DNA of 64,000 nucleotides from a virus: positions 64,001 to 128,000 of IMG/VR virus record IMGVR_UViG_3300020048_000018; one strand, 5' to 3'. The stretch's first letter is position 1. Each line of letters opens with the position of its first letter. The notes beneath the pieces were generated by a model. It was given only the letters and a program-made list of their open reading frames with translations. It searched no databases and had not been told where the DNA came from. The position numbers and the translations under genes are program-made. Positions 3,553 through 20,407 of the stretch are shown in pieces.

Positions 3553-3556
3553 GATT

Positions 3557-3600
3557 AAAGTTTTGAACTTTTCCTGAAATTCCTATATATTATATATGTA
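3557..3600 (+). promoter_or_regulatory. Class I repeated promoter (TTGAAC-17-TATATT)
   Basis: AAAGTTTTGAACTTTTCCTGAAATTCCTATATATTATATATGTA directly upstream of pncB; one of 10 copies. Confidence 0.8.
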
Positions 3601-3624
3601 TGTTAAAACCAAGGAGTTTCTCAA

Positions 3625-4791
3625 ATGCAACACATAATTAAGTCTCTTATCGATAATGACCTTTATAAATTTAGCATGGCACAGGCAGTTCTTCATCAAT
3701 ATCCGGGTGCTTTGGTTGAATATTCCTTCAAGTGCCGAAACAAAGAACAGTTTTCAAAAAAGATGTTCAAGGAAATCCTAAAGGAGATTGACCATCTTTG
3801 TGCCTTGAAACTTACTCCAGAGGAACTTTCCTACCTTGGAACAATTAGATTCCTTAAAAAGGATTTTATTGATTTTCTCTCCCTATTGAAATTAAACCGT
3901 GACCACATTGTAATAACCCTTTCGGATGAAGGTCAACTCAGTATAAAGATTAAGGGTAGCTGGCTCCTCACCATCTTTTTCGAAATACCCGTCCTGTCAA
4001 TTGTCAATGAGGTCTATTTCAAAAATCTTGGAGTAAAACCAGACTATAAAGTGGCTATGGAACGTCTGTATGAAAAAATAGCCATAGCAAAAGTATCCAA
4101 GTTCAAGTTTTCTGAATTTGGAGGTAGGCGTCGATACAGCAGGGATTGGCAAGAACAGGTAATAGCAGAATTGGTTAAGCAGAAAGATGAAATTAATTTC
4201 ACTGGAACTTCCAATGTTTACTTTGCCATGAAGTTTGGTATTAAACCAATTGGTACAGTTGCTCATGAGTTTATTATGGCTCATCAACAACTCGGTCCAA
4301 GGCTCATTGATTCTCAAAGTGCCGCCCTTCAATCTTGGGTATCTGAATATCGTGGAGACAATGGTACCTTTCTTACGGACGTAATTTCCACTGACTCGTT
4401 CCTGAAAGACTTTGACCTGTATTTTGCAAAACTCTATGATGGACTTCGACATGATTCAGGAGACCCTATTGTATGGGCTAACAAATGTATCGCCCATTAT
4501 GAAAGCCTTAAAATAAACCCCATGACTAAGACCTTGATCTTCAGTGATGGTTTGGATTTCACCAAGGCTTCATATATCAATGAGGTATTAAAAGGACGAA
4601 TCAATGTAGCCATGGGAGTAGGAACGAACTTAACGAATGATTTTCCTGATATCAAAGCTCTTAATATTGTTCTCAAAATGACTGAGTGCAATGGGCGACC
4701 GGTGGCAAAGATTAGTGACACCCCGGGTAAGGGAATGTGCGAAAATCAAGACTTCATTGATTATCTTAAAAGCGTGTATGAATTAAAGTGA
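3625..4791 (+). CDS. pncB: Nicotinate phosphoribosyltransferase
   Basis: SLIDNDLYKFSM, SEFGGRRR, GTSNV, PIGTVAHE (phospho-His), GLRHDSGDP, FSDGLD, GVGTNLTND, VAKISDTPGK: PncB-type rather than NAMPT. Confidence 0.93.
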   Translation: MQHIIKSLIDNDLYKFSMAQAVLHQYPGALVEYSFKCRNKEQFSKKMFKEILKEIDHLCALKLTPEELSYLGTIRFLKKDFIDFLSLLKLNRDHIVITLSDEGQLSIKIKGSWLLTIFFEIPVLSIVNEVYFKNLGVKPDYKVAMERLYEKIAIAKVSKFKFSEFGGRRRYSRDWQEQVIAELVKQKDEINFTGTSNVYFAMKFGIKPIGTVAHEFIMAHQQLGPRLIDSQSAALQSWVSEYRGDNGTFLTDVISTDSFLKDFDLYFAKLYDGLRHDSGDPIVWANKCIAHYESLKINPMTKTLIFSDGLDFTKASYINEVLKGRINVAMGVGTNLTNDFPDIKALNIVLKMTECNGRPVAKISDTPGKGMCENQDFIDYLKSVYELK

Positions 4792-4803
4792 AAGGATGTT
4801 AAT

Positions 4804-5136
4804 ATGTCTCTTAAAGAAGAAATAAGCTATACTGTTAAAGGTATTAGTATTGTATTTTTAATTTTTTTCTCCGTGGTAGGTTTTTTAACCTTTTGTTTTA
4901 AGCCCTACCTTATAGATAAATCCATCTATTTTTATGTAGAAAGTAAAACCTCCCTTACCTCAACATCAACAAGGGAGGATTCGGTATCCTTAAGTTCTGT
5001 ACCTTATACAAAATACCTTATGAAGGTAAGAGGGTATATTAATGAAAGAACAATTTGGTCTCCCGTACTCTTTGAGAAAGAGGTTTCAAAAGAGGAATTC
5101 GATAAATACGAAATTAATGACCACTATAGCCGGTAA
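4804..5136 (+). CDS. Hypothetical membrane-anchored protein
   Basis: ORF track; N-terminal hydrophobic helix. Confidence 0.55.
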   Translation: MSLKEEISYTVKGISIVFLIFFSVVGFLTFCFKPYLIDKSIYFYVESKTSLTSTSTREDSVSLSSVPYTKYLMKVRGYINERTIWSPVLFEKEVSKEEFDKYEINDHYSR

Positions 5137-5141
5137 AATAA

Positions 5142-5402
5142 ATGAAAAGATCAAGACAATATAGACGAAACAAAAGGTCAAATCTTATTAAAAGAGCTTG
5201 TAAGATTTTTAAAAACTCAAACTACTCTAGCTCCTCAGATGAAGAAGTTTTAGCTAAAGCAACAAAGGAATTTGATACTTTAACCAGAGGTCACTGTGAA
5301 TGTTGCTGTAATGTAAGAAAATCAGAAATGAATAAGCATCGAAGATTTGCTAAACTTTCCCGTCAGGAACAAAAAGCAATAATTGTAGACAAAGAAGATT
5401 AA
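5142..5402 (+). CDS. Small basic hypothetical protein (HCECCC motif)
   Basis: ORF track. Confidence 0.55.
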   Translation: MKRSRQYRRNKRSNLIKRACKIFKNSNYSSSSDEEVLAKATKEFDTLTRGHCECCCNVRKSEMNKHRRFAKLSRQEQKAIIVDKED

Positions 5403-5413
5403 AGGAAAATATT

Positions 5414-5962
5414 ATGCTATCAAAAGATATTTACCCGCCAATTTCCTCCTGTAGTAAAATACACGAACATGAAGAACTATTCGTTCCAGAATACACAAAG
5501 TCCCCCTTGTTCAAAGCAATGGAAGAAACTGGAGATTTTTTAGTGAGAAAAGCACCTTCAAGTAAAGATATATACAAGATGTCCATGCCGGAAAAATTAC
5601 AAGCCTACTTAGATAGAGGGGACTTAGCTACCGTGAAACGTCTTCAGGGTATAATAGAGGGTCTACATTCCCATGACATAGAAGAAGAAATACTCAAACC
5701 TACGGAACCCCTAAAAGTAGAATCCTGTACTATTCCTGAAAACTTAAAAAATGCCTATGATACCATGGAAAGTAATGAAAAGTTTAAGGAATCCATCAAA
5801 AGCCTTGTTGATGAACTAGTTTCGGATGAAATGAGATCTCATTCTTACGCAGATAAATCCCATGAACTCGTTTTCCAAATTTACCGGCTCTTCATTGGCT
5901 ATGATTCAGCATTAAGGGAACTTTCGGGATTAAAGGTTCTAATTCAAAAAGAATTAACCTAA
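5414..5962 (+). CDS. Hypothetical protein
   Basis: ORF track; AAGGA RBS. Confidence 0.6.
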   Translation: MLSKDIYPPISSCSKIHEHEELFVPEYTKSPLFKAMEETGDFLVRKAPSSKDIYKMSMPEKLQAYLDRGDLATVKRLQGIIEGLHSHDIEEEILKPTEPLKVESCTIPENLKNAYDTMESNEKFKESIKSLVDELVSDEMRSHSYADKSHELVFQIYRLFIGYDSALRELSGLKVLIQKELT

Positions 5963-6004
5963 AAGTTTTGAACTTTTCTTTAATACCCTATATATTATAT
6001 ATGT
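5961..6004 (+). promoter_or_regulatory. Class I repeated promoter
   Basis: AAAAGTTTTGAACTTTTCTTTAATACCCTATATATTATATATGT. Confidence 0.8.
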
Positions 6005-6022
6005 AAGTTTGAGGAGAATAAA

Positions 6023-6166
6023 ATGAGTTCATTTGAGTGGCATTTTGAGCATGGGATATTAGGTAAGGTTTTGATACTCTCAGGAAGAGCTATTGTCTTT
6101 CTTACCTTTGCCTTTGCAGGATGGAAAATCCTTGAAGTTATTTACATCGTATCACAAAGACATTAA
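6023..6166 (+). CDS. 47-aa single-TM peptide (not in ORF track)
   Basis: GAGGAG RBS; MSSFEWHFEHGILGKVLILSGRAIVFLTFAFAGWKILEVIYIVSQRH; first ORF after promoter. Confidence 0.6.
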   Translation: MSSFEWHFEHGILGKVLILSGRAIVFLTFAFAGWKILEVIYIVSQRH

Positions 6167-6175
6167 GAGGTTTTT

Positions 6176-6415
6176 ATGTATCGAAACATGCATGATTCGG
6201 ATGATGATATCCGACACGATCAACTTAAAGATTTAAGATCCTTTAAGAGTATTTCCGATTTGGAAAAAGAGGATATTCCTGAAGAAGATGACGACAAAAC
6301 TACTGAGTGCGAAAGTGAATTGCACCATCACATTACAACCAACGAGAAGACTAAAAGTTTTTTCGTAAATGATATGGATTACAACAGGAGAACATTGGAT
6401 GTCAGGACAAACTAG
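6176..6415 (+). CDS. Acidic hypothetical protein
   Basis: ORF track; GAGG RBS. Confidence 0.55.
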   Translation: MYRNMHDSDDDIRHDQLKDLRSFKSISDLEKEDIPEEDDDKTTECESELHHHITTNEKTKSFFVNDMDYNRRTLDVRTN

Positions 6416-6623
6416 CGAAGCAATCAGTTACGCAACTTCCGCAATAGCTATCTCAGCTATCAACCCAGCCTCAGACAATGAAGAGCTATTTCGTGAAGAC
6501 CTAAACTTCGCAGTAGTTGGATTTATACAGAATCTTTTTGATTCTGTTTCCTCAAAGTATGGGAAGCTGAAACTTTCCGACATTGTAGATGAACTGGATA
6601 AGTTTGCGAAGGTCTGTGAATGA
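6399..6623 (+). CDS. Hypothetical protein
   Basis: ORF track 6369..6623; start moved to ATG 6399 after AGGAG. Confidence 0.55.
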   Translation: MSGQTSEAISYATSAIAISAINPASDNEELFREDLNFAVVGFIQNLFDSVSSKYGKLKLSDIVDELDKFAKVCE

Positions 6624-6865
6624 AACTCAAAAACACTCTCCTGCAAGAGGTTCTTGTAGACATCCTCTTAAAATCTGCAAATGCTTCAGTAAAGGATATC
6701 CTTGTTACCAGTGACCCTTCTGCTCAGTATTATGAATCTGAAAAGTTTTATGACCTGACAGACTCCATTCTCGATATTATTCGAGGTGTTGTAGAGGGTG
6801 TTTGTAAAGCAGATAATTCTTTTGATTACAATCAAACTATTTTGGCAATTAAAGAACAACTCTAA
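6620..6865 (+). CDS. Hypothetical protein
   Basis: ORF track; overlaps upstream stop. Confidence 0.55.
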   Translation: MKLKNTLLQEVLVDILLKSANASVKDILVTSDPSAQYYESEKFYDLTDSILDIIRGVVEGVCKADNSFDYNQTILAIKEQL

Positions 6866-6900
6866 CTACTACTCTTGCTCTACTTTAAGAAGGAGATTCT

Positions 6901-7104
6901 ATGTGTACACCAAGACTCTACACCTTTGTAAATGAAACCCATCTTTTCAATTTCTTTATGGATAACTTGAAATATGTTTCTCTTTCTAAGGATTTTGAGT
7001 GTTTTGGATTAAGGTCAAGTGACTGCAAAAAACTGTACATACAAGTAGTTTCAAATTGGAAAGAAGAGCGAGAGTGTTTTAATGAAATGAAAGTCTTCAT
7101 GTGA
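6901..7104 (+). CDS. Hypothetical protein
   Basis: ORF track; AAGGAG RBS. Confidence 0.55.
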   Translation: MCTPRLYTFVNETHLFNFFMDNLKYVSLSKDFECFGLRSSDCKKLYIQVVSNWKEERECFNEMKVFM

Positions 7105-7116
7105 AAAGGAACTTAA

Positions 7117-7536
7117 ATGTCTGTTGTAATATTTACAGGAAATACAAATACTCCTCTCAATGAAATGAATCCTTTATGGTTAGAAAGCATCACAAGAAAG
7201 AATGGAAAAATAGTTTCAGGTCGTGTTATTAATGGTCACTGGGACTTAAAGGTAACTGATACTGAATGGCAAGCAGGTGGCTTTAGCTCAAATAGTAAGT
7301 ACTGTACCGTCACCTCATCAAAGATACCTGAAGAAATAATTGAAGTTTCGGTTACTTGGGAATGGGGAGACTATGATAATTATAATGAAGTAATCTATAC
7401 GGCTATGAAAATTGCGGGTAATCCAGAAAAACTTATAGCGAACGAAATCTTGGCAGTTCAACAACAAAAAGATTATAAGAAACTTAAAAAACTTGAAAAG
7501 ATTGTAGAAAAAGAATACTGTAATATTCCGTTTTAA
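7117..7536 (+). CDS. Hypothetical protein
   Basis: ORF track; AAAGGA RBS. Confidence 0.6.
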   Translation: MSVVIFTGNTNTPLNEMNPLWLESITRKNGKIVSGRVINGHWDLKVTDTEWQAGGFSSNSKYCTVTSSKIPEEIIEVSVTWEWGDYDNYNEVIYTAMKIAGNPEKLIANEILAVQQQKDYKKLKKLEKIVEKEYCNIPF

Positions 7537-7559
7537 AAAATTTTTGTTAATATAGTTTC

Positions 7560-8039
7560 ATGACCCAAATGAAACTAACTCGTGAGAGTGACAAGTGTTA
7601 TGCTGTAATATTAAATGACGAAAAGATTGGAACCGCAGAAAAGTTAAATGGCTTTTTTGTAAATTTTTTATTCTTCAACCTAATTAATATCATATCAGTA
7701 TCCTCCTTCGATGACAATTTAGAAAAAGAATTGCCTGAAATGTTTTGTAGGCTCTCTGAAACAATTGAGGGCTTTTCCAGACAAGTTTTTAATGTAGAAA
7801 AAGTTTTTGATACTTTCTTTATCACTTACAACAATGATATAGAATTGTGTTCTATGAATTATATCAAGAAGTCTTTTCAATTTAATTTCAATCTACCTCA
7901 AAGTATTAAAGAAGCTTCTTACAAATTTGTGGAAGATAAACTTCTATATAAAATAATAACAGAGGAACTTGTCTGTTCTGTTTTTTCAGAGCTAATGAAC
8001 ATCTTATATAGTTGGATGCTAACCGAGAAATCTAAGTAG
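7560..8039 (+). CDS. Hypothetical protein
   Basis: ORF track; preceded by TGTTAATAT motif at 7545. Confidence 0.55.
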   Translation: MTQMKLTRESDKCYAVILNDEKIGTAEKLNGFFVNFLFFNLINIISVSSFDDNLEKELPEMFCRLSETIEGFSRQVFNVEKVFDTFFITYNNDIELCSMNYIKKSFQFNFNLPQSIKEASYKFVEDKLLYKIITEELVCSVFSELMNILYSWMLTEKSK

Positions 8040-8143
8040 GTAACACTACTGAAAATATAAGTTTCTTATTTTACTATTCTAAAAATAAGTGGTGGGAAGT
8101 AGGGGTCTTTTAAAAACCCTAATTCAATTATAGGAGGTCTTGT

Positions 8144-9346
8144 ATGGCAAGATCAATGGCTGTGGTAAACACAATAGCAAATGTGGAGAGTATTCCAGAA
8201 AAAGACAGAATCGTTCTTTATGGATTTTCGGAAAATGATTGGAAAATTATCGATGGAAAGGATACCTATAAAGTAGGTGACTTGGTAGTGAGAATTGAGG
8301 TTGATTCGCTTTTACCGGTTAGGGAAGAATTTGAGTTCCTAAGAAGTAAATGCTATACATCTAAGTTTGATCGGTTCAGAATTAAAGCTTTAAAACTGGG
8401 TGGCGTAGTATCGCAGGGACTACTTCTTAACTTGAGTATACTTCCGAAAGGAAAATATAAATCAGGGGACGATGTTACTGAGTTACTGGATATCCTTAAG
8501 ATGGAGGATGCAGAAGATGCTTCTCCAAAAGCCAATGGAACATCAAAACTCCAAACGCCTTTCATTAAGTTTTTAATGGATCACAAGTTGACTAGGAAAT
8601 TAGGAAAACTTTTAATTAAGTTTAAGCTGAGAAATCATATCAGTGGCAATTTCCCTTCGAGTACTATTTCAAAAACCGATGAAACCATTCTACAGAATTA
8701 CAAGGGTCTTTTAACCAAACATGCTAAGGATGGTTCGTATATCACCCTGAAGTGTGAGGGACAGAGTAGCACCTTTCTGTACAAAATGAAAAAGAAAAAG
8801 CCTTTTGCTTTTTTTGCATGTTCAAGAAACATTGCGTATCCAAAAGATAACGATAATAATTTCTGGAAAATGGCTAAGAAGTATAAGCTGGACGAAAAAC
8901 TTAGAAAGTATTTTAAGGATACGGGAAAAGTATTAGCAATCCAGTGTGAGGTAATCGGACCGGGTGTGCAGGAAAATATCTATAAACTTAAAGAACTTGA
9001 GATAAGGATGTTTACTGCGAAAGATATCACAAACGATATTCTTTTAACTTATTCCGAACTTATTGACTTACGAGATAACTATGATATTCCGATGGTTCCT
9101 GTTTTAACTACAGGAATTCTTGAAGATATTCTTCCTGATCTCGAAACTGCTTTAAGACTTTCATTTATCAAAAAGAATGATTTAAGTCATCTTGACGAAA
9201 GATTCAGAGAATCCCTTAAAAAGGAAACTTGGATACCTGAGGATGTACTTAATGAAGGAATGGTTATCAGGGGGCTTAACAATGAATTCTCATTCAAGGT
9301 AAGAAATCCGCAATATGTCTTTGGTGGAATTACAGCTAAATACTAA
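8144..9346 (+). CDS. RNA ligase, DRB0094/Rnl2-like family
   Basis: N-terminal OB-like module (YKVGDLVVRIE.DSLLP..EEFEFL, IKALKLGGVVSQGL); motif I ITLKCEGQS; IQCEVIGPGVQEN.Y; NEGMVIR; SFKVRN. Confidence 0.85.
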   Translation: MARSMAVVNTIANVESIPEKDRIVLYGFSENDWKIIDGKDTYKVGDLVVRIEVDSLLPVREEFEFLRSKCYTSKFDRFRIKALKLGGVVSQGLLLNLSILPKGKYKSGDDVTELLDILKMEDAEDASPKANGTSKLQTPFIKFLMDHKLTRKLGKLLIKFKLRNHISGNFPSSTISKTDETILQNYKGLLTKHAKDGSYITLKCEGQSSTFLYKMKKKKPFAFFACSRNIAYPKDNDNNFWKMAKKYKLDEKLRKYFKDTGKVLAIQCEVIGPGVQENIYKLKELEIRMFTAKDITNDILLTYSELIDLRDNYDIPMVPVLTTGILEDILPDLETALRLSFIKKNDLSHLDERFRESLKKETWIPEDVLNEGMVIRGLNNEFSFKVRNPQYVFGGITAKY

Positions 9347-9350
9347 AAAG

Positions 9351-9376
9351 AAAGTTCAGCGAAAGCTGAACTTTTT
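9351..9376. terminator. Bidirectional intrinsic terminator
   Basis: AAAGTTCAGC-GAAA-GCTGAACTTTTT between convergent genes. Confidence 0.85.
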
Positions 9377-9380
9377 AGTT

Positions 9381-10415
9381 TTAAATTCTTCTTAATTTTT
9401 TTAGTTTCTTATATTGTTTCTCTTCCAACTTAATTAAGCTCTTATTATCAAACACATAGTTTGAGTTAACAATAAAACCTATTATTACAACTACCCGAAA
9501 CAGATAGGAATAAATCACATTATGAACTCCAATAAACTCGGTTACTGGAATTTTTAGACTTTCACTAAAACCATTAAAGTAGGTTAAAAGTTTAAATATC
9601 ACCATATCAAAGTTTGGAGTACCATTACTAAAATACTCGCTAGGAAGTATCTTTCCCCAGCGCAGGTCAGCATAATTTGAGTAAAAAATCTTTTGAGTAG
9701 AGTTGTATAAACTTAAGGTAAAAACAACTATAAGTACAGCATAGGTAAAATAAAAACGTTTGGTAAGTTTTGCTTTTCTGATAAACCTCATCATAGCAAT
9801 AACCATTATTATTCTATATAAATATAAAACAATATTTGGGGTAAATGACTTAAAAGACAAACAGTCTGTTTGAAGGAGGGGTTCAATAGAACCAACCAGA
9901 ATATTTTTATAGGATCTGGGTTCTATAATAGGAACACTTCTGTATTCAATTATTGAGTATAAATAAACAATTACTCCTATAACCATTAAAATAAGTATCG
10001 TCCTCAGTAATTGGGTATATTTCTTAAGTTCTACAATAGAGGGCGTCAATAAAATCGAGAGCGCAAAATAATAGCCTACAAGTACTAAGCATATAGCATT
10101 AATAATTGAAAAGAATTGATAGGAATAATATGTTACCGAAACCCATATTCTTAAAAAACTAATAATACAAATTAATAGACTTGTAACAAAAATATACAAT
10201 TCAGAAGTTGACCCGTTAGACTTTAAGTACAATCTTAAAGACTTAATAGAATAATATACAAGGATAGCTATTGTGACTACCGAAATAATTAAATCTATAA
10301 TTACCAACCAATCGAATACTCCGGTAGAAACGAGATTTCCCTGTATGTGAAATATCCCAAAGACTTCTAAAAACTTAAAGTAAAATATATTTAATAGGTT
10401 TAACATAAATAGCAT
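9381..10415 (-). CDS. Polytopic membrane protein (about 7-8 hydrophobic segments), unknown function
   Basis: ORF track; alternating long hydrophobic stretches; basic C-tail. Confidence 0.7.
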   Translation of the reverse strand: MLFMLNLLNIFYFKFLEVFGIFHIQGNLVSTGVFDWLVIIDLIISVVTIAILVYYSIKSLRLYLKSNGSTSELYIFVTSLLICIISFLRIWVSVTYYSYQFFSIINAICLVLVGYYFALSILLTPSIVELKKYTQLLRTILILMVIGVIVYLYSIIEYRSVPIIEPRSYKNILVGSIEPLLQTDCLSFKSFTPNIVLYLYRIIMVIAMMRFIRKAKLTKRFYFTYAVLIVVFTLSLYNSTQKIFYSNYADLRWGKILPSEYFSNGTPNFDMVIFKLLTYFNGFSESLKIPVTEFIGVHNVIYSYLFRVVVIIGFIVNSNYVFDNKSLIKLEEKQYKKLKKLRRI

Positions 10416-11191
10416 CCTTCCAACACGTTTACCTTTGTTATTACCTTTCTATAGATATGACCAAAGAAGTAAATCCTAAAAGAAATTATAACCAAGGAAA
10501 TTAGTAATAATACTCCCTTATAAGACGAGGTAAAGTCTACTACATTTAATAAAAATACAGTTAGACAGTAGATTAAGAATAAAAAGTATTCATGAAATAC
10601 CGCAGTATTATTTTTAGTATATGAAATAGTCCTACTTAGATAAATAAACAATGCAGTAAATGACATACAAAAAAAGCACAAGAATAAGGTTAAAAACGAA
10701 TTTAATTGAGGAAGTGATTTTATTTGTCCCATTCCAAAAATGAGATTAAAAACAGAGTTTTCTAAATAGGTGTTATATATGATATCTCCATTAACACTTA
10801 CTGGTAGAAAGACTAGATAAATCATTAAGGAAATTTCTAAAAATACAATTATATGTTTTTGAAACAGAGTAGTAGTAAAAGTTATATTTCTTATAAGATA
10901 CAAACAATGAAAAAACAAAGCAATAAGATTAAAAACATTAAAAGCAATTTGATTATATCCTACAACCCTAAAACTAAAAATATTTGGAAACAAATAATGA
11001 TTAAAACTTAATAGATAAAAAGCATTTGAAATTATCATACTTGTAAGTGAAATGAGAAGATAATAGGTATTATACTTTGGTACTCCCTTAAAATAAGCTA
11101 CCTTTATAAGTTTTAGTGCTGACCTAATCAGTAAAAGTTCTATAAAAATAAAGCAACTAAAAAATATAGCATTTGTAATATAAGTAATCAT
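10400..11191 (-). CDS. Polytopic membrane protein (about 7 hydrophobic segments), unknown function
   Basis: ORF track; hydrophobic throughout. Confidence 0.7.
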   Translation of the reverse strand: MITYITNAIFFSCFIFIELLLIRSALKLIKVAYFKGVPKYNTYYLLISLTSMIISNAFYLLSFNHYLFPNIFSFRVVGYNQIAFNVFNLIALFFHCLYLIRNITFTTTLFQKHIIVFLEISLMIYLVFLPVSVNGDIIYNTYLENSVFNLIFGMGQIKSLPQLNSFLTLFLCFFCMSFTALFIYLSRTISYTKNNTAVFHEYFLFLIYCLTVFLLNVVDFTSSYKGVLLLISLVIISFRIYFFGHIYRKVITKVNVLEGCYLC

Positions 11192-13335: not shown

Positions 13336-13387
13336 TTTTTAAAAGTGGTTATAATAGCCTCTTATTACTTACTATGGAGTATAACAA

Positions 13388-13567
13388 ATGAGCGATTTTA
13401 ATGATGATGATTATTTTGATGGAGTGGACCTTGATGAAGAAGATGACCTTCTTGGAGATTATTCTGATGATGATGAAGATGACTTCGATGAAGATGAATC
13501 CCTGTGGGATGACGATGACTTCGAGGATGATTTTGATGAGGAAGACGGATTCTCGTTCGTAGAATAA
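13388..13567 (+). CDS. 59-aa hyperacidic peptide (not in ORF track)
   Basis: GGAG RBS; MSDFNDDDYFDGVDLDEEDDLLGDYSDDDEDDFDEDESLWDDDDFEDDFDEEDGFSFVE; stop overlaps next ATG (TAATG). Confidence 0.75.
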   Translation: MSDFNDDDYFDGVDLDEEDDLLGDYSDDDEDDFDEDESLWDDDDFEDDFDEEDGFSFVE

Positions 13568-13752
13568 TGATTAAAAACATTGACTCTGTAGGTCTGGTAG
13601 ATTTTGTAATGGAATCTGCCACCTGCAACTTACCTAGGATTTGTTCTCAAGCTACAATAACTGATATGCAACTCAATCCAAAATCCCATAAAAACTTAAA
13701 GTTTGAGGGATACACAATCAAAGTATCTGTGGAGTTTATTAAGAATGGCTAA
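13567..13752 (+). CDS. Hypothetical protein
   Basis: ORF track. Confidence 0.5.
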   Translation: MIKNIDSVGLVDFVMESATCNLPRICSQATITDMQLNPKSHKNLKFEGYTIKVSVEFIKNG

Positions 13753-13948
13753 AAAAATTATGAAGGTTACAATATCCTTTTGTGGAGAATGTTGCTATTG
13801 TGAAGCAGGGGAAAAAATGGACAATGGTAAGACTCAAGTATTTTGTGAGTTTGGAAATAAACACCAAATAATTCTGGAATCAAAAGACCTTCAACCAATC
13901 TGGGATAGAATTGTCCTTGGAGACAAATGCCCTTTGGATAATGTGTGA
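13745..13948 (+). CDS. Small Cys-rich hypothetical protein (CGECCYC)
   Basis: ORF track 13703..13948; start moved to 13745. Confidence 0.5.
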   Translation: MAKKIMKVTISFCGECCYCEAGEKMDNGKTQVFCEFGNKHQIILESKDLQPIWDRIVLGDKCPLDNV

Positions 13949-14003
13949 AACACACTAAAAGTTTTTGTTAATATTAATAGTATCAAAACATTAGGAGAAT
14001 AGT

Positions 14004-14249
14004 ATGAGACGGACAATTACAATAGTTTCAGATTTGGTTCCAACAGCAAATGATTTTACTTATTTTAGATCAAATGGTTTCTCTATGGAAAAGTATGGTG
14101 AGGAAGGTAAGGAAGGTGTTGAAGTAGTTGGAATTCCTGAGGACTTCGACCAGTTTGAGTTCATGGAGAAAGATAAGTTTTCAAAAAATATCCTTAGCAA
14201 TTTCATTTCAGACATTTTCTCAAAATATGTAAATTACGATTATGCTTGA
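14004..14249 (+). CDS. Hypothetical protein
   Basis: ORF track; AGGAG RBS; TGTTAATAT at 13966. Confidence 0.55.
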   Translation: MRRTITIVSDLVPTANDFTYFRSNGFSMEKYGEEGKEGVEVVGIPEDFDQFEFMEKDKFSKNILSNFISDIFSKYVNYDYA

Positions 14250-14306
14250 TAGAGAAGATGGAGTGTATTTCAGAAACACCCTGAAATAAAGACGTAAAGG
14301 AAAAAT

Positions 14307-14405
14307 ATGATTGAGATTGGTACCAACCTTCAGCAAATAATTCTTGGAGCACTGGCAATAGTTGCTATTGCTATAGTACTTATAAACCTCATCAAGCGTA
14401 TATGA
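14307..14405 (+). CDS. 32-aa single-TM peptide (not in ORF track)
   Basis: AAAGGA RBS; MIEIGTNLQQIILGALAIVAIAIVLINLIKRI; stop overlaps next ATG. Confidence 0.55.
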   Translation: MIEIGTNLQQIILGALAIVAIAIVLINLIKRI

Positions 14406-14809
14406 AGAGTTCTTATGATGTTTGGATGTCTACATACAAAGGTGAAATTTACCGAAAGTGTGTAGAAGTAACCAATGAAATGAAAAAGGTCTTTCCAGAA
14501 CTCATCATTGTGAAAGGTCTTGCTCAGATCATGGAAAATGAAGAATGGTATCCACATCAGTGGTTAATTGATCCTGTTACCAAAGAAATAATAGACCCAA
14601 CAGAACGTCAATGGAAGGGAATCCTTGAGTATAAGGAACTTCCTAAGACTATGACAAAGCTAGAAAAATGTCCTAACTGTGGGCATTGGATTCTAAATGA
14701 AGACTTTGAGGGTCTCTGTTCTGAAAAATGTGAGAAAGAATACCTTGAATATCTGAATGCATGTGTTGTCACAAACTATGACGACGATGATTGCCCAGAG
14801 GATTATTAG
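14402..14809 (+). CDS. Possible papain/transglutaminase-fold protein with C-terminal Zn-binding motif
   Basis: RKCVE ... PHQWL ... IIDPT..Q (Cys-His-Asp order); CPNCG...CSEKC. Confidence 0.45.
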   Translation: MKSSYDVWMSTYKGEIYRKCVEVTNEMKKVFPELIIVKGLAQIMENEEWYPHQWLIDPVTKEIIDPTERQWKGILEYKELPKTMTKLEKCPNCGHWILNEDFEGLCSEKCEKEYLEYLNACVVTNYDDDDCPEDY

Positions 14810-14883
14810 ACTAAATCCAACGGAAGAGATATGTGACTTGATGATTCCAAAAAAAAAATTAAAAACCATTGGAGGTTTTATAT

Positions 14884-15312
14884 ATGAAGATAACCTTGCC
14901 TTTTGAAGGTTCCAAAGAAGAAATTGAATTAATTTCTAAAAAATATAATGTAGAGTTCGAGAGCCTTAGTAACGTTAAGCTATCAATCGTTTCTTCTCCT
15001 CTCTATATTGTAGAAGGTACTAGCAAAGAACTGTTAGTTTTTATTAACAAGTTTATGGAATCAATAGGTTGCTCAGGCAGTATTGATAGTTTTCTCAAAG
15101 TCTCAAATGACAAAATCTTTGTCTATTGGGAACGACTCGGTGAAACTTTTAAGTTGGAATATTATTTAAGTGCTGTGGAAGCAGAGCTTAATCAGAAAGC
15201 TATCGATGCTAAAACTACCGATAAAGCTAAGACTGAGGATGATATTGAAAATATTAAAAATAGAGTTGACACCAGACAGAAACTTAAAATGGATATTTCT
15301 AAGATTCTGTAG
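14884..15312 (+). CDS. Hypothetical protein
   Basis: ORF track 14869 (TTG); ATG 14884 follows GGAGG. Confidence 0.55.
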   Translation: MKITLPFEGSKEEIELISKKYNVEFESLSNVKLSIVSSPLYIVEGTSKELLVFINKFMESIGCSGSIDSFLKVSNDKIFVYWERLGETFKLEYYLSAVEAELNQKAIDAKTTDKAKTEDDIENIKNRVDTRQKLKMDISKIL

Positions 15313-15374
15313 TTGACCCTTTTCTAATTTTCCTGTACATTAATAAGTGTAGGATGAAAGTCCTACCGTACATA

Positions 15375-15446
15375 GTCCCGTTCGCCAAATGGTTAAGGCG
15401 GTGTTCTGCAAAAGCACTATCGTGAGTTCAATTCTCACACGGGACT
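15375..15446 (+). tRNA. trnC: tRNA-Cys (GCA), CCA not encoded
   Basis: Acceptor GTCCCGT/ACGGGAC; D arm GCC..TGG..GGC; anticodon stem GTGTT/AGCAC, loop CTGCAAA; T arm GTGAG-TTCAATT-CTCAC; discriminator U as expected for Cys. Confidence 0.93.
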
Positions 15447-15452
15447 CTTTAG

Positions 15453-15483
15453 AACCTTGAAACTTTTGTTTCAGGGTTTTTTG
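15453..15483 (+). terminator. Intrinsic terminator after tRNA-Cys
   Basis: AACCTTGAAAC-TTTT-GTTTCAGGGTT then T run. Confidence 0.75.
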
Positions 15484-15496
15484 TTAATATAGTTTA

Positions 15497-15991
15497 ATGA
15501 ACTATAAACCCTTTGATAAAAAAGAATATGAAAGAAATGATGAACGAGCTAAAAAAGCAGGACAGATTTTTCTGAGACAAAAAGGCTGTATGCCTGTACG
15601 TGAAACACAAGAGTTCTATAAACTTAAAGATTTTTCAGTTATCTATAAAGGAGAAGATATCCCCGTAGAAGTTGAAATTAAAAATATGTGGAAGTCTTCT
15701 TTCAAATGGCTAGGATATTCAACCGTCAGTATTCCTACTCGAAAAAACCAAAGTAAATCTACCCTCTACCTACTCTTTAATGATAGAATGGATACCCTTC
15801 TGTATTGTCCTACAAGTGAGGTCTTATCCTCTACAATCATAAAAAAGAATACAAGCAAGGGTACTGTTTTAGAACCCTTCTTCGATAGCCCTCTATCAAA
15901 ATGGAGAATGGAAGCCCTGATAAATGGGGTTTGGAGCGAAGTAACCAATTTTGGAGGAGTAAGCCTTCAGGAGATATTAATAGGAAAATGA
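15497..15991 (+). CDS. Putative PD-(D/E)xK nuclease-fold protein
   Basis: LKDF...VEVEIK (D...ExK); SIPTRK; LLFN. Confidence 0.55.
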   Translation: MNYKPFDKKEYERNDERAKKAGQIFLRQKGCMPVRETQEFYKLKDFSVIYKGEDIPVEVEIKNMWKSSFKWLGYSTVSIPTRKNQSKSTLYLLFNDRMDTLLYCPTSEVLSSTIIKKNTSKGTVLEPFFDSPLSKWRMEALINGVWSEVTNFGGVSLQEILIGK

Positions 15992-16006
15992 AGGTGAATT
16001 CGGTAA

Positions 16007-16050
16007 AAAGTTTTGAACTTTTTGAAAATATTCTATATATTATATATATA
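16007..16050 (+). promoter_or_regulatory. Class I repeated promoter
   Basis: GAATTCGGTAAAAAGTTTTGAACTTTTTGAAAATATTCTATATATTATAT. Confidence 0.8.
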
Positions 16051-16077
16051 TATATAGAAGGTTCATAAGGAGTTCAT

Positions 16078-16191
16078 ATGATTCAATTTTCAGTTTTTCA
16101 AGTTATCGTTATTGTTGCCGTGTGGTCAGTTATAAGCGATTTGATTGCATTTTTTGTTATCAAACGGTTCTTCAATGTGACCCGAAAATAA
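16078..16191 (+). CDS. 37-aa single-TM peptide (not in ORF track)
   Basis: AAGGAG RBS; MIQFSVFQVIVIVAVWSVISDLIAFFVIKRFFNVTRK; own promoter and terminator. Confidence 0.65.
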   Translation: MIQFSVFQVIVIVAVWSVISDLIAFFVIKRFFNVTRK

Positions 16192-16209
16192 CTTTTATTT
16201 CGTTGGTTA

Positions 16210-16240
16210 AACCCTGAAAACAAGCTTTTCAGGGTTTTTT
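16210..16240 (+). terminator. Intrinsic terminator
   Basis: AACCCTGAAAA-CAAGC-TTTTCAGGGTT then T run. Confidence 0.8.
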
Positions 16241-16266
16241 ATTTTAAAATCGTTCAGAATTCGGTA

Positions 16267-16311
16267 AAAAGATTTGAACTTTTTCTTAAACTCCTATATA
16301 TTATATAAGTA
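16267..16311 (+). promoter_or_regulatory. Class I repeated promoter
   Basis: GAATTCGGTAAAAAGATTTGAACTTTTTCTTAAACTCCTATATATTATAT. Confidence 0.8.
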
Positions 16312-16333
16312 AGGTAACAAAGGAGTATATGGT

Positions 16334-17287
16334 ATGAAAGAGATGTTTGACAGTAAGGGCGTTCCAATGATTGAAAACTATCTTGAAGCGAGAGAGATTG
16401 CTTTGAGATTCCTAAATATTAAGTATACTCTCAAAGAATATGTTAGATTACATGATTTCGGAGTATTTGATGGACTTGGGATGCCTCCTGACCCTGTTGA
16501 GTTTTATCAAATTAAATGGTTCACCTTTATCGGGAAAATCCCTATTATAAAAGACTTTATGGAAGCAAGAAAACTTGCCATACCTCTCCTTAATGAAATT
16601 CTCACTCGACCAGAATATGAAAGATTATTTGAACTCGGTGTTTTTTATGGCACCGGGCTTCCTCAAAGTCCTGTAGATACTTATCATATGTCTTGGGATA
16701 AGTTTATCGGAAACCCCCCTCGAATACCCATGATTCAAGATTACCTTGAAGCAAGAGCAATTGCTTTGGTATATCTTAAAGATAAACCAACTCATACGGA
16801 ATATAGTCGTTTACATGCCCTTAAAGTATTTAAGGGAATGGGAATGCCCTCTAATCCAGCAGACTATTATCATTTGGAAGATTGGTATGCTTTTATTGGA
16901 ATAGTAAAAACTCCGATAATTAAGAGTTATCTTAAGGCAAGGAAAGTTGCTTTAAAAGCCCTTAAAGGAGATATCTCTAAATCCGAATACAGAAGATTAT
17001 ATGTTCTGGGTGTACTGGAAGATTTGGGGCTTCCAAGAGACCCTGTTAATTATTATAATCTGGATACTTGGGGGGATTTTACCGGCGTTAAAAAAGTCCC
17101 TATAATAAAAGACCCCTCGGAAGCAAGGACGGTGGCTTTAGCTCTTATGGGAGACAACATTAATCCTAAGGAATATAAGAGATTAAATGACATTGGCTCA
17201 CTGAAAGAAGTAGGTCTACCATATAATTTAGTCCAACAATACAATATGTCTTTTTATATTTTCATGGGAACCCAGAAAGCTATTTGA
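16334..17287 (+). CDS. Tandem-repeat protein, five units of about 60 aa, resembling integrase-repeat (INT_rpt)-type units
   Basis: Unit consensus P(I/M)I..Y.EAR..AL..L......EY.RL...GV..G.G(L/M)P..PV.YY....W..F.G. Confidence 0.65.
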   Translation: MKEMFDSKGVPMIENYLEAREIALRFLNIKYTLKEYVRLHDFGVFDGLGMPPDPVEFYQIKWFTFIGKIPIIKDFMEARKLAIPLLNEILTRPEYERLFELGVFYGTGLPQSPVDTYHMSWDKFIGNPPRIPMIQDYLEARAIALVYLKDKPTHTEYSRLHALKVFKGMGMPSNPADYYHLEDWYAFIGIVKTPIIKSYLKARKVALKALKGDISKSEYRRLYVLGVLEDLGLPRDPVNYYNLDTWGDFTGVKKVPIIKDPSEARTVALALMGDNINPKEYKRLNDIGSLKEVGLPYNLVQQYNMSFYIFMGTQKAI

Positions 17288-17317
17288 TAAAAACTTCACA
17301 AGGAAAAGGGAATAATA

Positions 17318-17692
17318 ATGAGAGAAGAACTTCAGAAAATTGAAAATGTACGTGAAACCTTTTCTGCAACTTTTGTACGTTATGGTCTAATCCAAAACTT
17401 CTATTGTCCTCAAGAGTCTATTGTCCTGAAAAACATTAAGAACACTAAAACTGATGAAGTGGTTGTTGCAGAAGAATACACCTTTAGACTTTCAAAGGGT
17501 TTTGCCCAACTAAGCGGAGTTCTTAAGGAAAATGACACAATTCAATTTGATGCCAGAGTTTCCGAGTGCGAAGTTATTTCTGGAAGGGAAGATTGTGGAT
17601 ATGTTCCAAAGATTCAAAATGAATACAGTCTCGTTAAGTCCAGTAAAAAGGATTACCGATTCTCCCATCCCAACAAAATAAGTAAACTGTGA
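17318..17692 (+). CDS. Hypothetical protein, possible OB-like fold
   Basis: ORF track; beta-rich, IQFDARV. Confidence 0.55.
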   Translation: MREELQKIENVRETFSATFVRYGLIQNFYCPQESIVLKNIKNTKTDEVVVAEEYTFRLSKGFAQLSGVLKENDTIQFDARVSECEVISGREDCGYVPKIQNEYSLVKSSKKDYRFSHPNKISKL

Positions 17693-17788
17693 AATATTTT
17701 TAAGAATAAAGAACTAAAACTTCTTCTACTAATTACTTAAAGTTATTATCTTAGAATCATTTCTAGATAAACAAAAAAGGAAACAAAT

Positions 17789-18778
17789 ATGGACGATAAT
17801 GAAGACCTGAACGTTAATGATGAAATGGACAATACCTCTGAACCTATGGGTAATGATGGAATTGATAATACAGACGACATTTCTCTTTCAGAAGAAATGA
17901 AACTTGAATTGGGGAAAATGCTTACCTCCAATTACTTTATAAAAGAAGGTGATAGTGAATATCACTATGACTCAGAACCTGACTACCGTGACAATCTTGA
18001 TCAGAAAGACATAAAAAAAATATTATCAGATGAAGACCCAAGGATGGCTTTTTACTCACTCTTTGATGAAGCTGACATGTATGCTATGGATGGTGCTCGT
18101 GATTTTGCAAAAGAGTGTATAGAAAGAGAATGGGAAGATACTTTTGATGAAGATACCCAAGGAACTTTCGAAGAACTTGAACAAGAAGTATTAGATTGGA
18201 TTTCTGAAAATGTTTTTGGTAGTTATGACACTTCTTCCTTACTGGACACGGAGGTTCGTTGTGACCTTATCATAGATACAGGGGATGCAAACCTTGATTA
18301 CTCACTCGGATATGAAAGTTTGGATACTGACGAAAATGGCGATCCTGTTCTTCCAGATGAATCACCTTTTATCTGGTTGGCAGAAACACAGGGATATACT
18401 CGTGAACAAATTACAAAAGCAATTACGGGAGATTTTGAGGGAAGCAAATTCCTAAAATCCGTATATGTAGAAGTAATAAACTGTACTACCAGTATGAACG
18501 CCCTTGGTTTCTTTGGAACATGTTCACTTAAAACTCTTATTGAGATGAAAGAAAACAAGGAAGATAAAAAGAGTATTCCAATAAAAGTTGGAACTCCCTG
18601 TGGTCTTTATGACGCATGGAATGGTGCTGGTGGAACACTTGAAATAGAACTTGAAAAAGACTTGGTTGTCCCTGCTGAGTTTATCGGAAGTTTTAGTATT
18701 GATGGTTCAAGAGGTTACTCCATTGATGAAATCTATGGAATGACTGGAAAGTTCTGGGACACTACATTCAGTGTATAA
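17789..18778 (+). CDS. Highly acidic hypothetical protein
   Basis: ORF track; D/E-rich throughout; AAAGGA RBS; ACTAATTA at 17728. Confidence 0.7.
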   Translation: MDDNEDLNVNDEMDNTSEPMGNDGIDNTDDISLSEEMKLELGKMLTSNYFIKEGDSEYHYDSEPDYRDNLDQKDIKKILSDEDPRMAFYSLFDEADMYAMDGARDFAKECIEREWEDTFDEDTQGTFEELEQEVLDWISENVFGSYDTSSLLDTEVRCDLIIDTGDANLDYSLGYESLDTDENGDPVLPDESPFIWLAETQGYTREQITKAITGDFEGSKFLKSVYVEVINCTTSMNALGFFGTCSLKTLIEMKENKEDKKSIPIKVGTPCGLYDAWNGAGGTLEIELEKDLVVPAEFIGSFSIDGSRGYSIDEIYGMTGKFWDTTFSV

Positions 18779-18797
18779 TTTAACGCATTAATTTGAG

Positions 18798-18830
18798 AGC
18801 CTGTTACATTAATTTGTGACAGGCTTTTTT
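18798..18830 (+). terminator. Intrinsic terminator
   Basis: AGCCTGTTACA-TTAATT-TGTGACAGGCT then T run. Confidence 0.8.
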
Positions 18831-18835
18831 TATAT

Positions 18836-18880
18836 AAAGTTTTGAACTTTTCTTGAATATCCTATATATTATATATGTAA
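18836..18880 (+). promoter_or_regulatory. Class I repeated promoter heading the long + strand run that includes the pncA cluster
   Basis: AAAGTTTTGAACTTTTCTTGAATATCCTATATATTATATATGTAA. Confidence 0.8.
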
Positions 18881-18898
18881 GGTATATAGGGGGCAAAA

Positions 18899-19159
18899 AT
18901 GAAAGTTACACTGATTAACATCAATAATGCACTAAAAAAGGAATTCCCTAGACATAAACTGACAATGTACAAAAGTTTCGGATGGGGCTATTTTTACTTT
19001 CTCTCTGATGCCGAACTTAAATCCCCTGATTATGTAGATGATATAGAAAATTTATACTGTTATTCTATTATACAGATTCCCTCGATTGATTTCGTACTTG
19101 ATCATGTCAGGCACTATTTGCCTAAAGAAGAAAAAGAAGGGAGCAAAAATGAAGACTAA
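18899..19159 (+). CDS. Hypothetical protein
   Basis: ORF track. Confidence 0.55.
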   Translation: MKVTLININNALKKEFPRHKLTMYKSFGWGYFYFLSDAELKSPDYVDDIENLYCYSIIQIPSIDFVLDHVRHYLPKEEKEGSKNED

Positions 19160-19400
19160 AGCAACGAAAGAACAGATCGCCAAAGTACTGGAAGGGGTTA
19201 AGAAGGAAAGAAATATTCTCCCTGAGTATTCCATGTTTGGTGACAATAACTGGGAGGGAATGGATAAAAGGATTCGCCTCCTTGAACGAGGTCTTGAAGG
19301 TATTTACCCTACGGTAGACATCGACAATGATGACACATACTACTGTGCTGAGTGGATGAATGATATCAACTCCTCAGAATTCGGAGATGATTATTCTTAA
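19149..19400 (+). CDS. Hypothetical protein
   Basis: ORF track 19086..19400; start moved to 19149 after GGGAG. Confidence 0.6.
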   Translation: MKTKATKEQIAKVLEGVKKERNILPEYSMFGDNNWEGMDKRIRLLERGLEGIYPTVDIDNDDTYYCAEWMNDINSSEFGDDYS

Positions 19401-19414
19401 TATGAAGGAGAAAT

Positions 19415-19591
19415 ATGGAATGTGAGAATGTGAATCACCTATCAATTGGTGAATCAATGGTGTTTGTGGCAGAAGCCAAAAAGGACACTATACATGTTAT
19501 AACCTTTGTTGTAACAAGAGTTATAACAGGTTGGCTTTACACTTGTTCAACTTTGGGTACAGTAACTTTTGTACCTGAAAGAATCATATAA
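19415..19591 (+). CDS. 58-aa hypothetical protein (not in ORF track)
   Basis: AAGGAG RBS; open frame MECENVNHLS...VPERII. Confidence 0.5.
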   Translation: MECENVNHLSIGESMVFVAEAKKDTIHVITFVVTRVITGWLYTCSTLGTVTFVPERII

Positions 19592-19606
19592 TAAGAGGAG
19601 ATACAC

Positions 19607-20407
19607 ATGAAACTAGGTCTTTTTGTAATTGACCCACAGAATGATTTCTGTGATGCAAATGGTGCTTTGTTCGTCCCTGGTGCTGATCAGGATATGAAAA
19701 AGCTTTCCGGTCTGGTAAACCGTCTCGGGAGCAAGATCAAGAATATTTTTGTGACAATGGATTCACATCATGTTTTTGACATTGCTCACCCCACTTTCTG
19801 GGTAGGCAGGGATCTCAGTAATCCTCCGGTCTACACCATCATCTCGGAAGCAGATGTTTCCACAGGAATTTGGAGAGCATCAAACCCTTCCATGCAAAAG
19901 TGGGCTGAGGAATATGTGAAGGGTCTTTCTGTCAAAGGCAGATTTCCCCTCTGTATCTGGCCCGAACATTGCCTGATTGGAAGTTGGGGTAACAACATTT
20001 ATCCTGACCTCTACAATTCCCTTACCGCACTCGAAAAGAAGGGTGCTTTTGTGCAGTACCAGACAAAAGGCTCGAACTACAAAACGGAACACTATTCTGT
20101 TTTCGAAGCTGAATATCCTGACCCTTCGGATATGTCAACTCAGTTCAACAGCCTGTTCGCAAACGCAATCAACTCAAGCGACAAAGTTTTGATTGCAGGT
20201 GAGGCCCGAACCCATTGTGTTATCAACTCCCTTCGGAGTCTGATTGATTACATGGGAGAAGATTTCATCAAGAAGATGATCTTCATCGAAGATGCCAGTT
20301 CCAATGTAACTGTAATTCCCGCCCTGATTACTGCCGCAGACGATTACTTCGCTGAACTGGTACGTAAGGGCATGGAAGTCACCACGACCGATAAGTTTTT
20401 GGCATAA
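19607..20407 (+). CDS. pncA: Nicotinamidase / isochorismatase-family cysteine hydrolase
   Basis: VIDPQNDFC, GALFVPGA, VTMDSH, WPEHC, TKG, AGEARTHCV (Asp-Lys-Cys triad plus Asp/His/His metal ligands). Confidence 0.85.
   Translation: MKLGLFVIDPQNDFCDANGALFVPGADQDMKKLSGLVNRLGSKIKNIFVTMDSHHVFDIAHPTFWVGRDLSNPPVYTIISEADVSTGIWRASNPSMQKWAEEYVKGLSVKGRFPLCIWPEHCLIGSWGNNIYPDLYNSLTALEKKGAFVQYQTKGSNYKTEHYSVFEAEYPDPSDMSTQFNSLFANAINSSDKVLIAGEARTHCVINSLRSLIDYMGEDFIKKMIFIEDASSNVTVIPALITAADDYFAELVRKGMEVTTTDKFLA

Follow-up and report, generated by a model that had tools for sequence, protein, structure and literature searches.

The stretch of DNA considered here (the window) comprises 64,000 nucleotides, bases 64001-128000 of the linear, 178,053-bp IMG/VR record IMGVR_UViG_3300020048_000018, for which CheckV gives a completeness of 69%. 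The source of the record is a large uncultured aquatic phage with a G+C content of ∼33%, and the stretch is present in runs from one aquatic-metagenome study; a megablast search of window positions 3000-21000 against 50,697 phage records detected no near-identical known phage. The window contains pncB, encoding a nicotinate phosphoribosyltransferase, and, some distance downstream, a gene for a long nicotinamidase-like enzyme that is followed on the same strand by genes for a von Willebrand factor A (vWA)-domain protein, a PP2C-type phosphatase and a eukaryote-like Ser/Thr kinase. Together with a nadE gene located elsewhere in the record, the first two genes would probably provide the phage with three of the four steps of the Preiss-Handler route from nicotinamide to nicotinamide adenine dinucleotide (NAD+).

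The pncB gene occupies positions 3625-4791 of the + strand and encodes a protein of 388 amino acids (aa). The protein has the two-domain build expected of the family, with Pfam NAPRTase (271.6 bits) and NAPRTase_N (115.4 bits) both above their cut-offs, and is matched over residues 1-387 by the PncB equivalog TIGR01514 (472.9 bits; cut-off 269.55) and over its full length by NCBIfam NF003704 (538.7 bits; cut-off 379). Since the cut-offs of both of these models are exceeded, it is by family a PncB-type NAPRTase and not a NAMPT; a PHROG family named nicotinamide phosphoribosyltransferase matched at only E 3.2e-14, and other NAPRTase models also scored far lower. The PncB proposed at this position in an earlier, first-pass annotation of the DNA, with the proviso of just such a hidden Markov model comparison, is thus upheld as to both reading frame and family. 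The nearest named relatives are PncB proteins of Spirochaetes/Spirochaetota (56-58% identity). The protein contains the GT(V/M)AHE motif, the histidine of which (H214) is invariant in the alignment and presumably functional. A preference for nicotinate over nicotinamide, and stimulation by ATP, are predicted from the family assignment. No other NAPRTase-family gene is present in the record, and Pfam scans detected no NAD-related genes between pncB and the nicotinamidase cassette. Directly 5′ of pncB is a gene (2362-3552) whose product joins a response-regulator receiver domain to a pair of PAS domains, unusual cargo for a phage, and further upstream are genes for a SegE-like GIY-YIG endonuclease (623-1513) and a Thg1-like tRNA-His guanylyltransferase homologue (1516-2328).

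The second gene (19607-20407, + strand) encodes a protein of 266 aa that is a divergent member of the isochorismatase superfamily and a predicted nicotinamidase-like enzyme. It has no Pfam match at E 0.01 and belongs to a large family of proteins of ∼265 aa, for which 3044 of 3523 candidates reached E≤1e-3, JGI having named some of them nicotinamidase; its closest relatives share 63-79% identity. In an alignment of 25 members D9, F14, D52, H54, W118, H121, K154, and C204 are invariant, and these include a predicted catalytic triad (D9/K154/C204) and predicted metal ligands (D52/H54/H121). Fold arguments here and below are based on profile searches against sequences in the PDB and on the ESM Atlas. 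With the profile of the 25 sequences the top match was Pnc1 (2h0r; E 8.3e-14), the nicotinamidase of yeast, and 8 of the 12 PDB sequences listed for the profile are named nicotinamidase or pyrazinamidase. In the profile alignment D9, D52/H54, H121, K154, and C204 fall on Pnc1 D8, D51/H53, H94, K122, and C167; D8/K122/C167 are the catalytic triad and D51/H53/H94 the zinc ligands of that enzyme. A metal site of the form D-x-H…H separates nicotinamidases from other enzymes of the isochorismatase fold. The ESM Atlas cluster containing the protein (666 members, 51% viral) has been automatically named "Nicotinamidase family protein". In base composition the gene stands apart from the remainder of the genome, with a G+C content at third codon positions (GC3) of 0.483 (z 3.3) against a genome mean of 0.282; none of 132 open reading frames (ORFs) is higher.

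The third gene lies outside the window. A complete, glutamine-dependent NadE of 646 aa is encoded at C1:175684-177624 (record coordinates) and scores 820.2 bits with NF002730 (cut-off 473); it is the sole PF02540 gene of the record. The first-pass annotation had predicted that the route would require NadE and a nicotinate mononucleotide (NaMN) adenylyltransferase from elsewhere in the genome or from the host, and the former has been located in the same genome. The one gene matching PF01467 (C1:145943-146440) was considered as a candidate for the latter, NadD, and rejected, being CoaD according to TIGR01510 (140.9 bits; cut-off 103.3) and scoring only 14.7 and 11.5 bits with TIGR00482. This coaD gene is followed by a weak dephospho-CoA-kinase-like gene (the pair spanning C1:145943-146961; L003:1492-2510). 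Phosphopantetheine adenylyltransferase (CoaD) and dephospho-CoA kinase catalyze the last two steps of coenzyme A synthesis. Apart from CoaD, no gene of the nicotinamide mononucleotide (NMN) adenylyltransferase type is present in the 178-kb record, nor were matches obtained there to Nudix, to the N-terminal domain of phosphoribosyl pyrophosphate (PRPP) synthetase (Pribosyltran_N) or to PnuC; the wider genome, which the first-pass annotation had pointed to as a possible source of NadD, NadM and PRPP synthetase, therefore yielded none of them within the recorded portion.

Upstream of pncB, separated from it by 24 nt, is a 44-nt promoter-like element (3557-3600), and a second copy (18836-18879) that differs from it at 3 of 44 positions heads the unit containing the nicotinamidase cassette. 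The element combines TTGAAC, which is conserved and resembles a −35 box, with an AT-rich, extended −10 region, and TTGAAC and TATATT are separated by 17 nt in the second copy. Immediately before this copy the preceding unit is closed by a strong terminator-like hairpin (18795-18828), with a stem of 14 pairs and then a run of T residues, and between the copy and the nicotinamidase gene are three small ORFs of 86, 104, and 58 aa (18899-19159, 19086-19400, and 19415-19591, + strand) with no Pfam or PHROG match. At up to 9 mismatches in 44 positions the element occurs 25 times in the record, and each occurrence precedes a co-oriented ORF; the copies in the window are at 3557, 5962, 12213, 16007, 16268, 18836, 28844, 31139, 31503, and 46376, and one at position 172576 of the record heads a tightly packed run of genes that ends in nadE. 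The element is a predicted general phage promoter class, probably read by a polymerase of the sigma-70 type, and it may drive early expression. With 25 copies, each before an ORF, it is not specific to NAD genes. The shared promoter to which the first-pass annotation drew attention is therefore present, directly before pncB and via the three small ORFs before the nicotinamidase gene, but as a general class it is weak evidence of a common NAD programme.

The NAD-dependent DNA ligase noted in the first-pass annotation is borne out as a protein of 632 aa (26674-28572, + strand; DNA_ligase_aden 132.3 bits, phrog_3869 E 7.8e-148), the gene for which is located between two successive promoter copies, those at 18836 and 28844. 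Two different RNA ligases are also encoded in the window (8144-9346 and 25399-26670), one with a PHA02142 OB domain plus RNA_ligase and the other resembling T4 Rnl1; the second RNA ligase gene is situated just upstream of the DNA ligase gene.

The nicotinamidase gene is the first of a co-oriented cassette (19607-24438) in the order nicotinamidase, vWA, PP2C, kinase. The vWA-domain protein (241 aa; 20419-21144, + strand), a predicted metal-binding adaptor, has a MIDAS-type DxSxS…T…D motif in which D38, S42, T105, and D141 are invariant. Because its profile gave only weak vWA matches in the PDB (E 0.06), the assignment rests on this motif and on the Pfam matches of family members, VWA_2 in 9 of 21 and VWA in 6 of 21. 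The PP2C-type phosphatase (280 aa; 21878-22720, + strand) scores 52.9 bits with PP2C_2 (cut-off 24) and has the invariant Asp-Gly motifs; its profile retrieved no PDB sequence at E 0.1. The kinase (568 aa; 22732-24438, + strand) matches Pkinase at E 9.1e-6, which is below the cut-off, and has an invariant G-loop and invariant K36, D131, N136, and D151, while its profile retrieved RSK2 and NEK2 at E 4e-5 to 5e-4. The C-terminal domain of the kinase, as modeled in the ESM Atlas, resembles beta-propellers (TM scores of 0.61-0.72).

In this phage the vWA and PP2C genes are separated by two unrelated, non-conserved small ORFs on the + strand, neither of which was found in any of 80 bacterial loci; one, of 118 aa (21154-21510), is not among the conserved viral neighbors, and the other, of 134 aa (21458-21862), matches phrog_1238 (E 1.8e-14) and has no Pfam match. 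The vWA gene has a GC3 of 0.459 (z 2.9; exceeded by 2 of 132 ORFs), and values for the PP2C, kinase, nadE, and ligase genes are ordinary. Since within the cassette the compositional outliers are the nicotinamidase and vWA genes, and the small ORFs lie between the two halves, the arrangement suggests that part of the cassette, possibly its nicotinamidase-vWA half, was replaced recently.

Conservation of the neighborhood has been followed in the best 80 of 194 confirmed viral contigs that encode the long nicotinamidase, with flanks of up to 10 kb per side, by tblastn with every ORF of the phage genome and, as a second approach, by ORF clustering. The vWA gene was detected in 73 of these 80 loci, the kinase gene in 69 and the PP2C gene in 65. 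All three were present in 59 loci, the gene order is conserved across loci, and in 20 all four genes lie within 4.6 kb. By the same tblastn measure 23 of the 80 loci contain PncB and 13 the long NadE. At least one of PncB and NadE is encoded within 10 kb in 22 loci, a figure that rises to 33 when Nudix is included, and in ∼7 loci the NAD genes are interleaved inside the cassette. The least expected element of the system is this fixed association of the nicotinamidase with the vWA-PP2C-kinase trio. No paper on a nicotinamidase-vWA-PP2C-kinase unit was found in the literature covered, from which subscription journals were excluded. It may be speculated that the trio plausibly regulates the nicotinamidase by phosphorylation.

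Larger viral records allow the association of the NAD genes to be considered irrespective of distance. Among the 80 viral loci, 47 belong to records of at least 65 kb, and an NAPRTase-family gene is matched in 26 of these 47 records. In 20 the match reaches E≤1e-41, and in six it is weak, falls in a frame of 450-531 aa and is possibly NAMPT-like. NadE is encoded by 25 of the 47. A NadD model matches at E≤1e-3 in 16, with 13 below 1e-20 and 4 over the cut-off, and two have been confirmed with NCBIfam NF000840 (166.3 and 165.8 bits; cut-off 150). In three records (G005, G024, and G033) PncB, NadE, and NadD are encoded within 4.3 kb, beside the cassette; the records behind loci L058, L048, and L016 are examples with pncB-nadE-nadD clusters adjoining the cassette. 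In the opposite direction, the best 80 of at least 469 viral contigs with a PncB relative were taken and 50 large records among them searched. A PF00857 gene is present in 42 of the 50 (41 over the cut-off), mostly as frames of 172-215 aa, and the long nicotinamidase in 3 further records, bringing the total with an isochorismatase-family gene to 45. In 49 of the 80 PncB loci (L169-L248) a short gene of this family (∼175-185 aa) is situated no more than 2 kb from PncB; many of these loci come from the same sample and represent one abundant lineage, with records of 150-190 kb. In a curated phage collection the long form was detected in 4 records and PncB in 14, and both were present in the huge phages LR756511.1 and LR756500.1. 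The co-occurrence of pncA-type and pncB genes across viruses, which the first-pass annotation had put forward as a test of its proposal, is seen from either starting point (a strong PncB match in 20 of 47 records, an isochorismatase-family gene in 45 of 50).

The long nicotinamidase is not confined to viruses, being common in bacteria and found in some archaeal metagenome-assembled genomes (MAGs), with at least 574 confirmed stretches. Of 80 bacterial loci, 40 have full flanks, and in these the long form is followed by the vWA gene in 23, the kinase gene in 22, and the PP2C gene in 18, and PncB is encoded within 8 kb in 14. In four bacterial loci (L101, L114, L116, and L158) pncB is the next gene and begins right behind that of the long form; this classic pncA-pncB arrangement supports the substrate assignment of the nicotinamidase. 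In four others (L090, L091, L094, and L096, from Pyrinomonadaceae/Pyrinomonadales MAG contigs) a Nudix gene is located immediately upstream of the cassette. In a FastTree phylogeny of 153 long-form proteins, from which 8 of 160 loci were left out as partial matches, frames with stops or proteins outside 240-330 aa, at least 5 changes between virus and cell labels are required (parsimony count 14), and the protein of this phage forms a long branch in no supported clade.

With genes for PncB, the nicotinamidase-like enzyme, and NadE, and none for NadD, the phage covers steps 1, 2, and 4 of the deamidating route. In the reading that we favor, and regard as reasonably probable, these three Preiss-Handler steps would keep NAD+ available during infection. 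The 266-aa enzyme would first convert nicotinamide to nicotinate, from which PncB would form NaMN with PRPP. Conversion of NaMN to nicotinate adenine dinucleotide (NaAD) would presumably fall to the NadD of the host, or to a gene in the missing ∼31% of the phage genome, and the phage NadE would complete the route from NaAD to NAD+. Bacterial NadD generally prefers NaMN, and by working through deamidated intermediates the phage could use the essential NadD of its host and would need no NMN adenylyltransferase of its own. NAD-dependent DNA ligase is a consumer of NAD+, and that encoded by the phage would be among the beneficiaries. Depletion of NAD+ ranks among the commonest strategies of bacteria against phages; as nicotinamide is the product of the NADase effectors of such defenses, the route could also rebuild NAD+ after an attack and might thereby have a counter-defense effect.

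Several observations weigh against this reading and bear on other explanations of the locus. The first concern the identity of the step 1 enzyme, which falls below the family cut-offs both of PF00857 (10.3 bits; cut-off 27) and of the PncA equivalog NF008623 (34.4 bits; cut-off 174), so that the nicotinamidase-type hydrolase of the first-pass annotation is sustained by its ORF, its catalytic and metal-binding residues, and its solved relatives, but not by the curated models. Compared with Pnc1 the protein also has an insertion of ∼25-30 residues between the D-x-H and WPxHC motifs. Both features could be accommodated if it acted on some other substrate, for instance a different amide or a nucleotide containing nicotinamide; the phage would then have no entry step for nicotinamide. 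We regard this as quite unlikely, given that the D-x-H…H metal ligands and the D-K-C triad are invariant, that the solved proteins closest to the family are nicotinamidases, and that pncB is situated directly downstream in some bacteria. The same caution extends to the short isochorismatase-family proteins encoded next to PncB in other viruses, three of which were tested and proved to be weakly PncA-like in two cases and RutB-like in the third. Further, the 50 records of the PncB-first set are dominated by near-identical members of one lineage from one sample, and 13 of them are proviruses that may include host DNA.

The completeness and arrangement of the set in this phage also count against the favored reading. 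No NadD or other NaMN adenylyltransferase was found in the 178-kb record, and since that record is only 69% complete its absence from the whole phage is not established; the second of the two activities that the first-pass annotation had said would be required is thus not encoded in the record. The NAD genes are scattered, pncB lying 14.8 kb 5′ and nadE ∼91 kb 3′ of the nicotinamidase gene, and the three belong to separate transcription units. Dispersal over ∼110 kb is what might be seen if the genes were independent, horizontally acquired passengers without functional coupling in this phage, and the GC3 values, which single out the nicotinamidase and vWA genes (z 3.3 and 2.9) from those for PP2C, kinase, NadE, and ligase, suggest separate or recent acquisition; the virus/cell label changes required by the tree (at least 5) are also in its favor. 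This explanation appears very improbable, as the genes are found together again and again in many unrelated viral records, whichever of them is taken as the starting point, and all of the reading frames and catalytic residues are intact.

A further point is the linkage of the nicotinamidase gene. Its association with the trio, whose genes are present in 65-73 of the 80 viral loci, is far tighter than that with PncB, present in 23, and these tightest partners had been left out of the first-pass annotation. Nineteen of the records have a completeness of 90% or more; in 9 of these the PncB match is strong, in 4 it is weak, and in the remaining 6 there is none. Since only 9 of the 19 have a strong match, the nicotinamidase often occurs without a phage PncB. 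The nicotinamidase might then be mainly the enzymatic arm of a vWA-PP2C-kinase phospho-signaling or conflict module that acts on the level of nicotinamide and does not feed PncB, perhaps by altering the activity of enzymes that nicotinamide inhibits, or by depriving the salvage pathways of rival phages of this substrate. Such a role would be in keeping with the 59 of 80 loci in which the trio is complete, the 20 in which the four genes are compacted within 4.6 kb, the presence of the cassette in ∼23 of 40 full-flank bacterial loci, and the 6 of 19 near-complete phage records that have a cassette gene and no NAPRTase-family gene; triads resembling TerY-P have moreover been reported, in the portions of PMC10542128 consulted, as stand-alone anti-phage systems. 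Against this, PncB, NadE, or Nudix is encoded within 10 kb in 33 of the 80 loci and NAD genes are interleaved with the cassette in ∼7, no PADLOC defense model, TerY-P included, is matched, and this phage also encodes PncB and NadE. A signaling role of this kind in place of NAD+ synthesis is accordingly considered unlikely, less so than a change of substrate, and NAD+ provision by the three Preiss-Handler enzymes is retained as the preferred reading. Within that reading the benefit may be everyday provision of NAD+, whether to the ligase or in a host that depends on salvage, or restoration of the pool once an NADase defense has acted; the sequence fits both.

A phage-encoded Preiss-Handler route is itself already proposed in print for jumbo phages ("NAD-jumbo phages"; PMC11662467 and preprint), the sole treatment of such a phage gene set in the literature covered. 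In the part of that Microbiome 2024 paper drawn upon here, 174 of 668 gut jumbo phages are described as having complete salvage or Preiss-Handler sets, pncB-nadD-nadE clusters are named and phage-encoded pncA is mentioned, all from sequence analysis. The present phage resembles these in having pncB and nadE on a large phage genome alongside an NAD-dependent ligase, but its record lacks nadD and its genes are scattered where theirs are clustered; because nadD is missing from the record, it falls outside the set defined there by possession of all of pncB, nadD and nadE. Neither the long nicotinamidase subfamily nor its kinase, phosphatase, and vWA partners are described in the main-text parts of PMC11662467 consulted. 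No experimental test of the deamidating phage route was found in the literature covered, which again did not extend to subscription journals. The first-pass interpretation is partly supported, given that NadE and the co-occurrence have been found, yet the route is already in print, the set in this phage is incomplete and dispersed, and the anti-defense role is hypothetical. The logic of the pathway is strengthened by the presence of a predicted NadE and by co-occurrence in the two directions.

Phage NAD+ rebuilding has been demonstrated experimentally for three pathways, NARP1 (Adps and Namat) and NARP2 (Nampt and Nmnat; bioRxiv 10.1101/2024.02.11.579819) and NARP3 (PnuC and NadR; PMC13464706), as set out in the sections of these reports to which we refer. 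The proposed outcome is the same, namely restoration of NAD+ by phage genes, and NARP1 and NARP2 likewise start from nicotinamide. In contrast to all three, the route considered here, known from genes alone, would deamidate first, proceed via NaMN and NaAD, and need NadE. The searches for Pribosyltran_N, PnuC, and NMN adenylyltransferase detected none of the NARP1, NARP2, or NARP3 gene sets in the record. The distinction in chemistry from NARP1 and NARP2 drawn in the first-pass annotation stands, and applies to NARP3 also. PncA, PncB, nicotinamidase, and NadE do not appear in the main texts of bioRxiv 10.1101/2024.02.11.579819 or PMC13464706, as far as these were available.

With respect to characterized nicotinamidases, the phage protein retains the D-K-C triad, the D-x-H…H site, and the WPxHC motif of yeast Pnc1 and Mycobacterium tuberculosis PncA (2h0r and 3pl1), and is ∼80 residues longer than the latter (266 vs 186 aa), with an insertion. 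Unlike bacterial PncA, the long form falls below curated cut-offs and is usually tied to the signaling trio, although in several bacterial genomes pncB directly follows the long-form gene as in pncA-pncB salvage operons.

The trio itself has a counterpart in the TerY-P triad, which consists of a TerY-like vWA protein, a PP2C phosphatase, and a Ser/Thr kinase (Anantharaman et al., 2012; Gao et al., 2020; as summarized in part of PMC10542128). The same three domain types occur in one co-oriented gene set in the phage, but from what is given there the kinase tail of TerY-P is a zinc ribbon or an OB fold, whereas that of the phage kinase is beta-propeller-like, and the phage cassette differs further in being phage-borne, in having the nicotinamidase as a fixed fourth gene, and in its adjacency to NAD-salvage genes. 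With PADLOC models, including those for TerY-P, neither the vWA protein nor the PP2C was matched, and the kinase yielded nothing beyond a mad6 fragment. The terms "nicotinamidase" and "isochorismatase" are not found in the portions of two surveys from the Aravind group (PMC9503650 and PMC7824862) that were covered. If the two halves of the system were joined, a regulated fourth class of NAD+ rebuilding beside NARP1-3 might be envisaged, in which nicotinamide released by NADases is returned via NaMN and the host NadD, and the entry enzyme is gated by a phospho-switch of beta-propeller sensor kinase, PP2C, and vWA protein that responds to the NAD+ pool or to the state of infection; in this full form the proposal is doubtful, and we would put it well behind NAD+ provision as such.

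The significance of the locus lies in the chemistry that it would add to phage biology. None of the three NAD+ rebuilding pathways shown experimentally in phages is deamidating, and the route proposed here would be a chemically separate answer, needing only the essential NadD of the host. Its genes are widespread in viral contigs, at least 469 of which carry a PncB relative and 194 the long nicotinamidase, and the phage described here is an incomplete and dispersed example of it. The constancy with which kinase, phosphatase, and vWA genes accompany that of the nicotinamidase hints, in addition, at post-translational control of NAD+ salvage.

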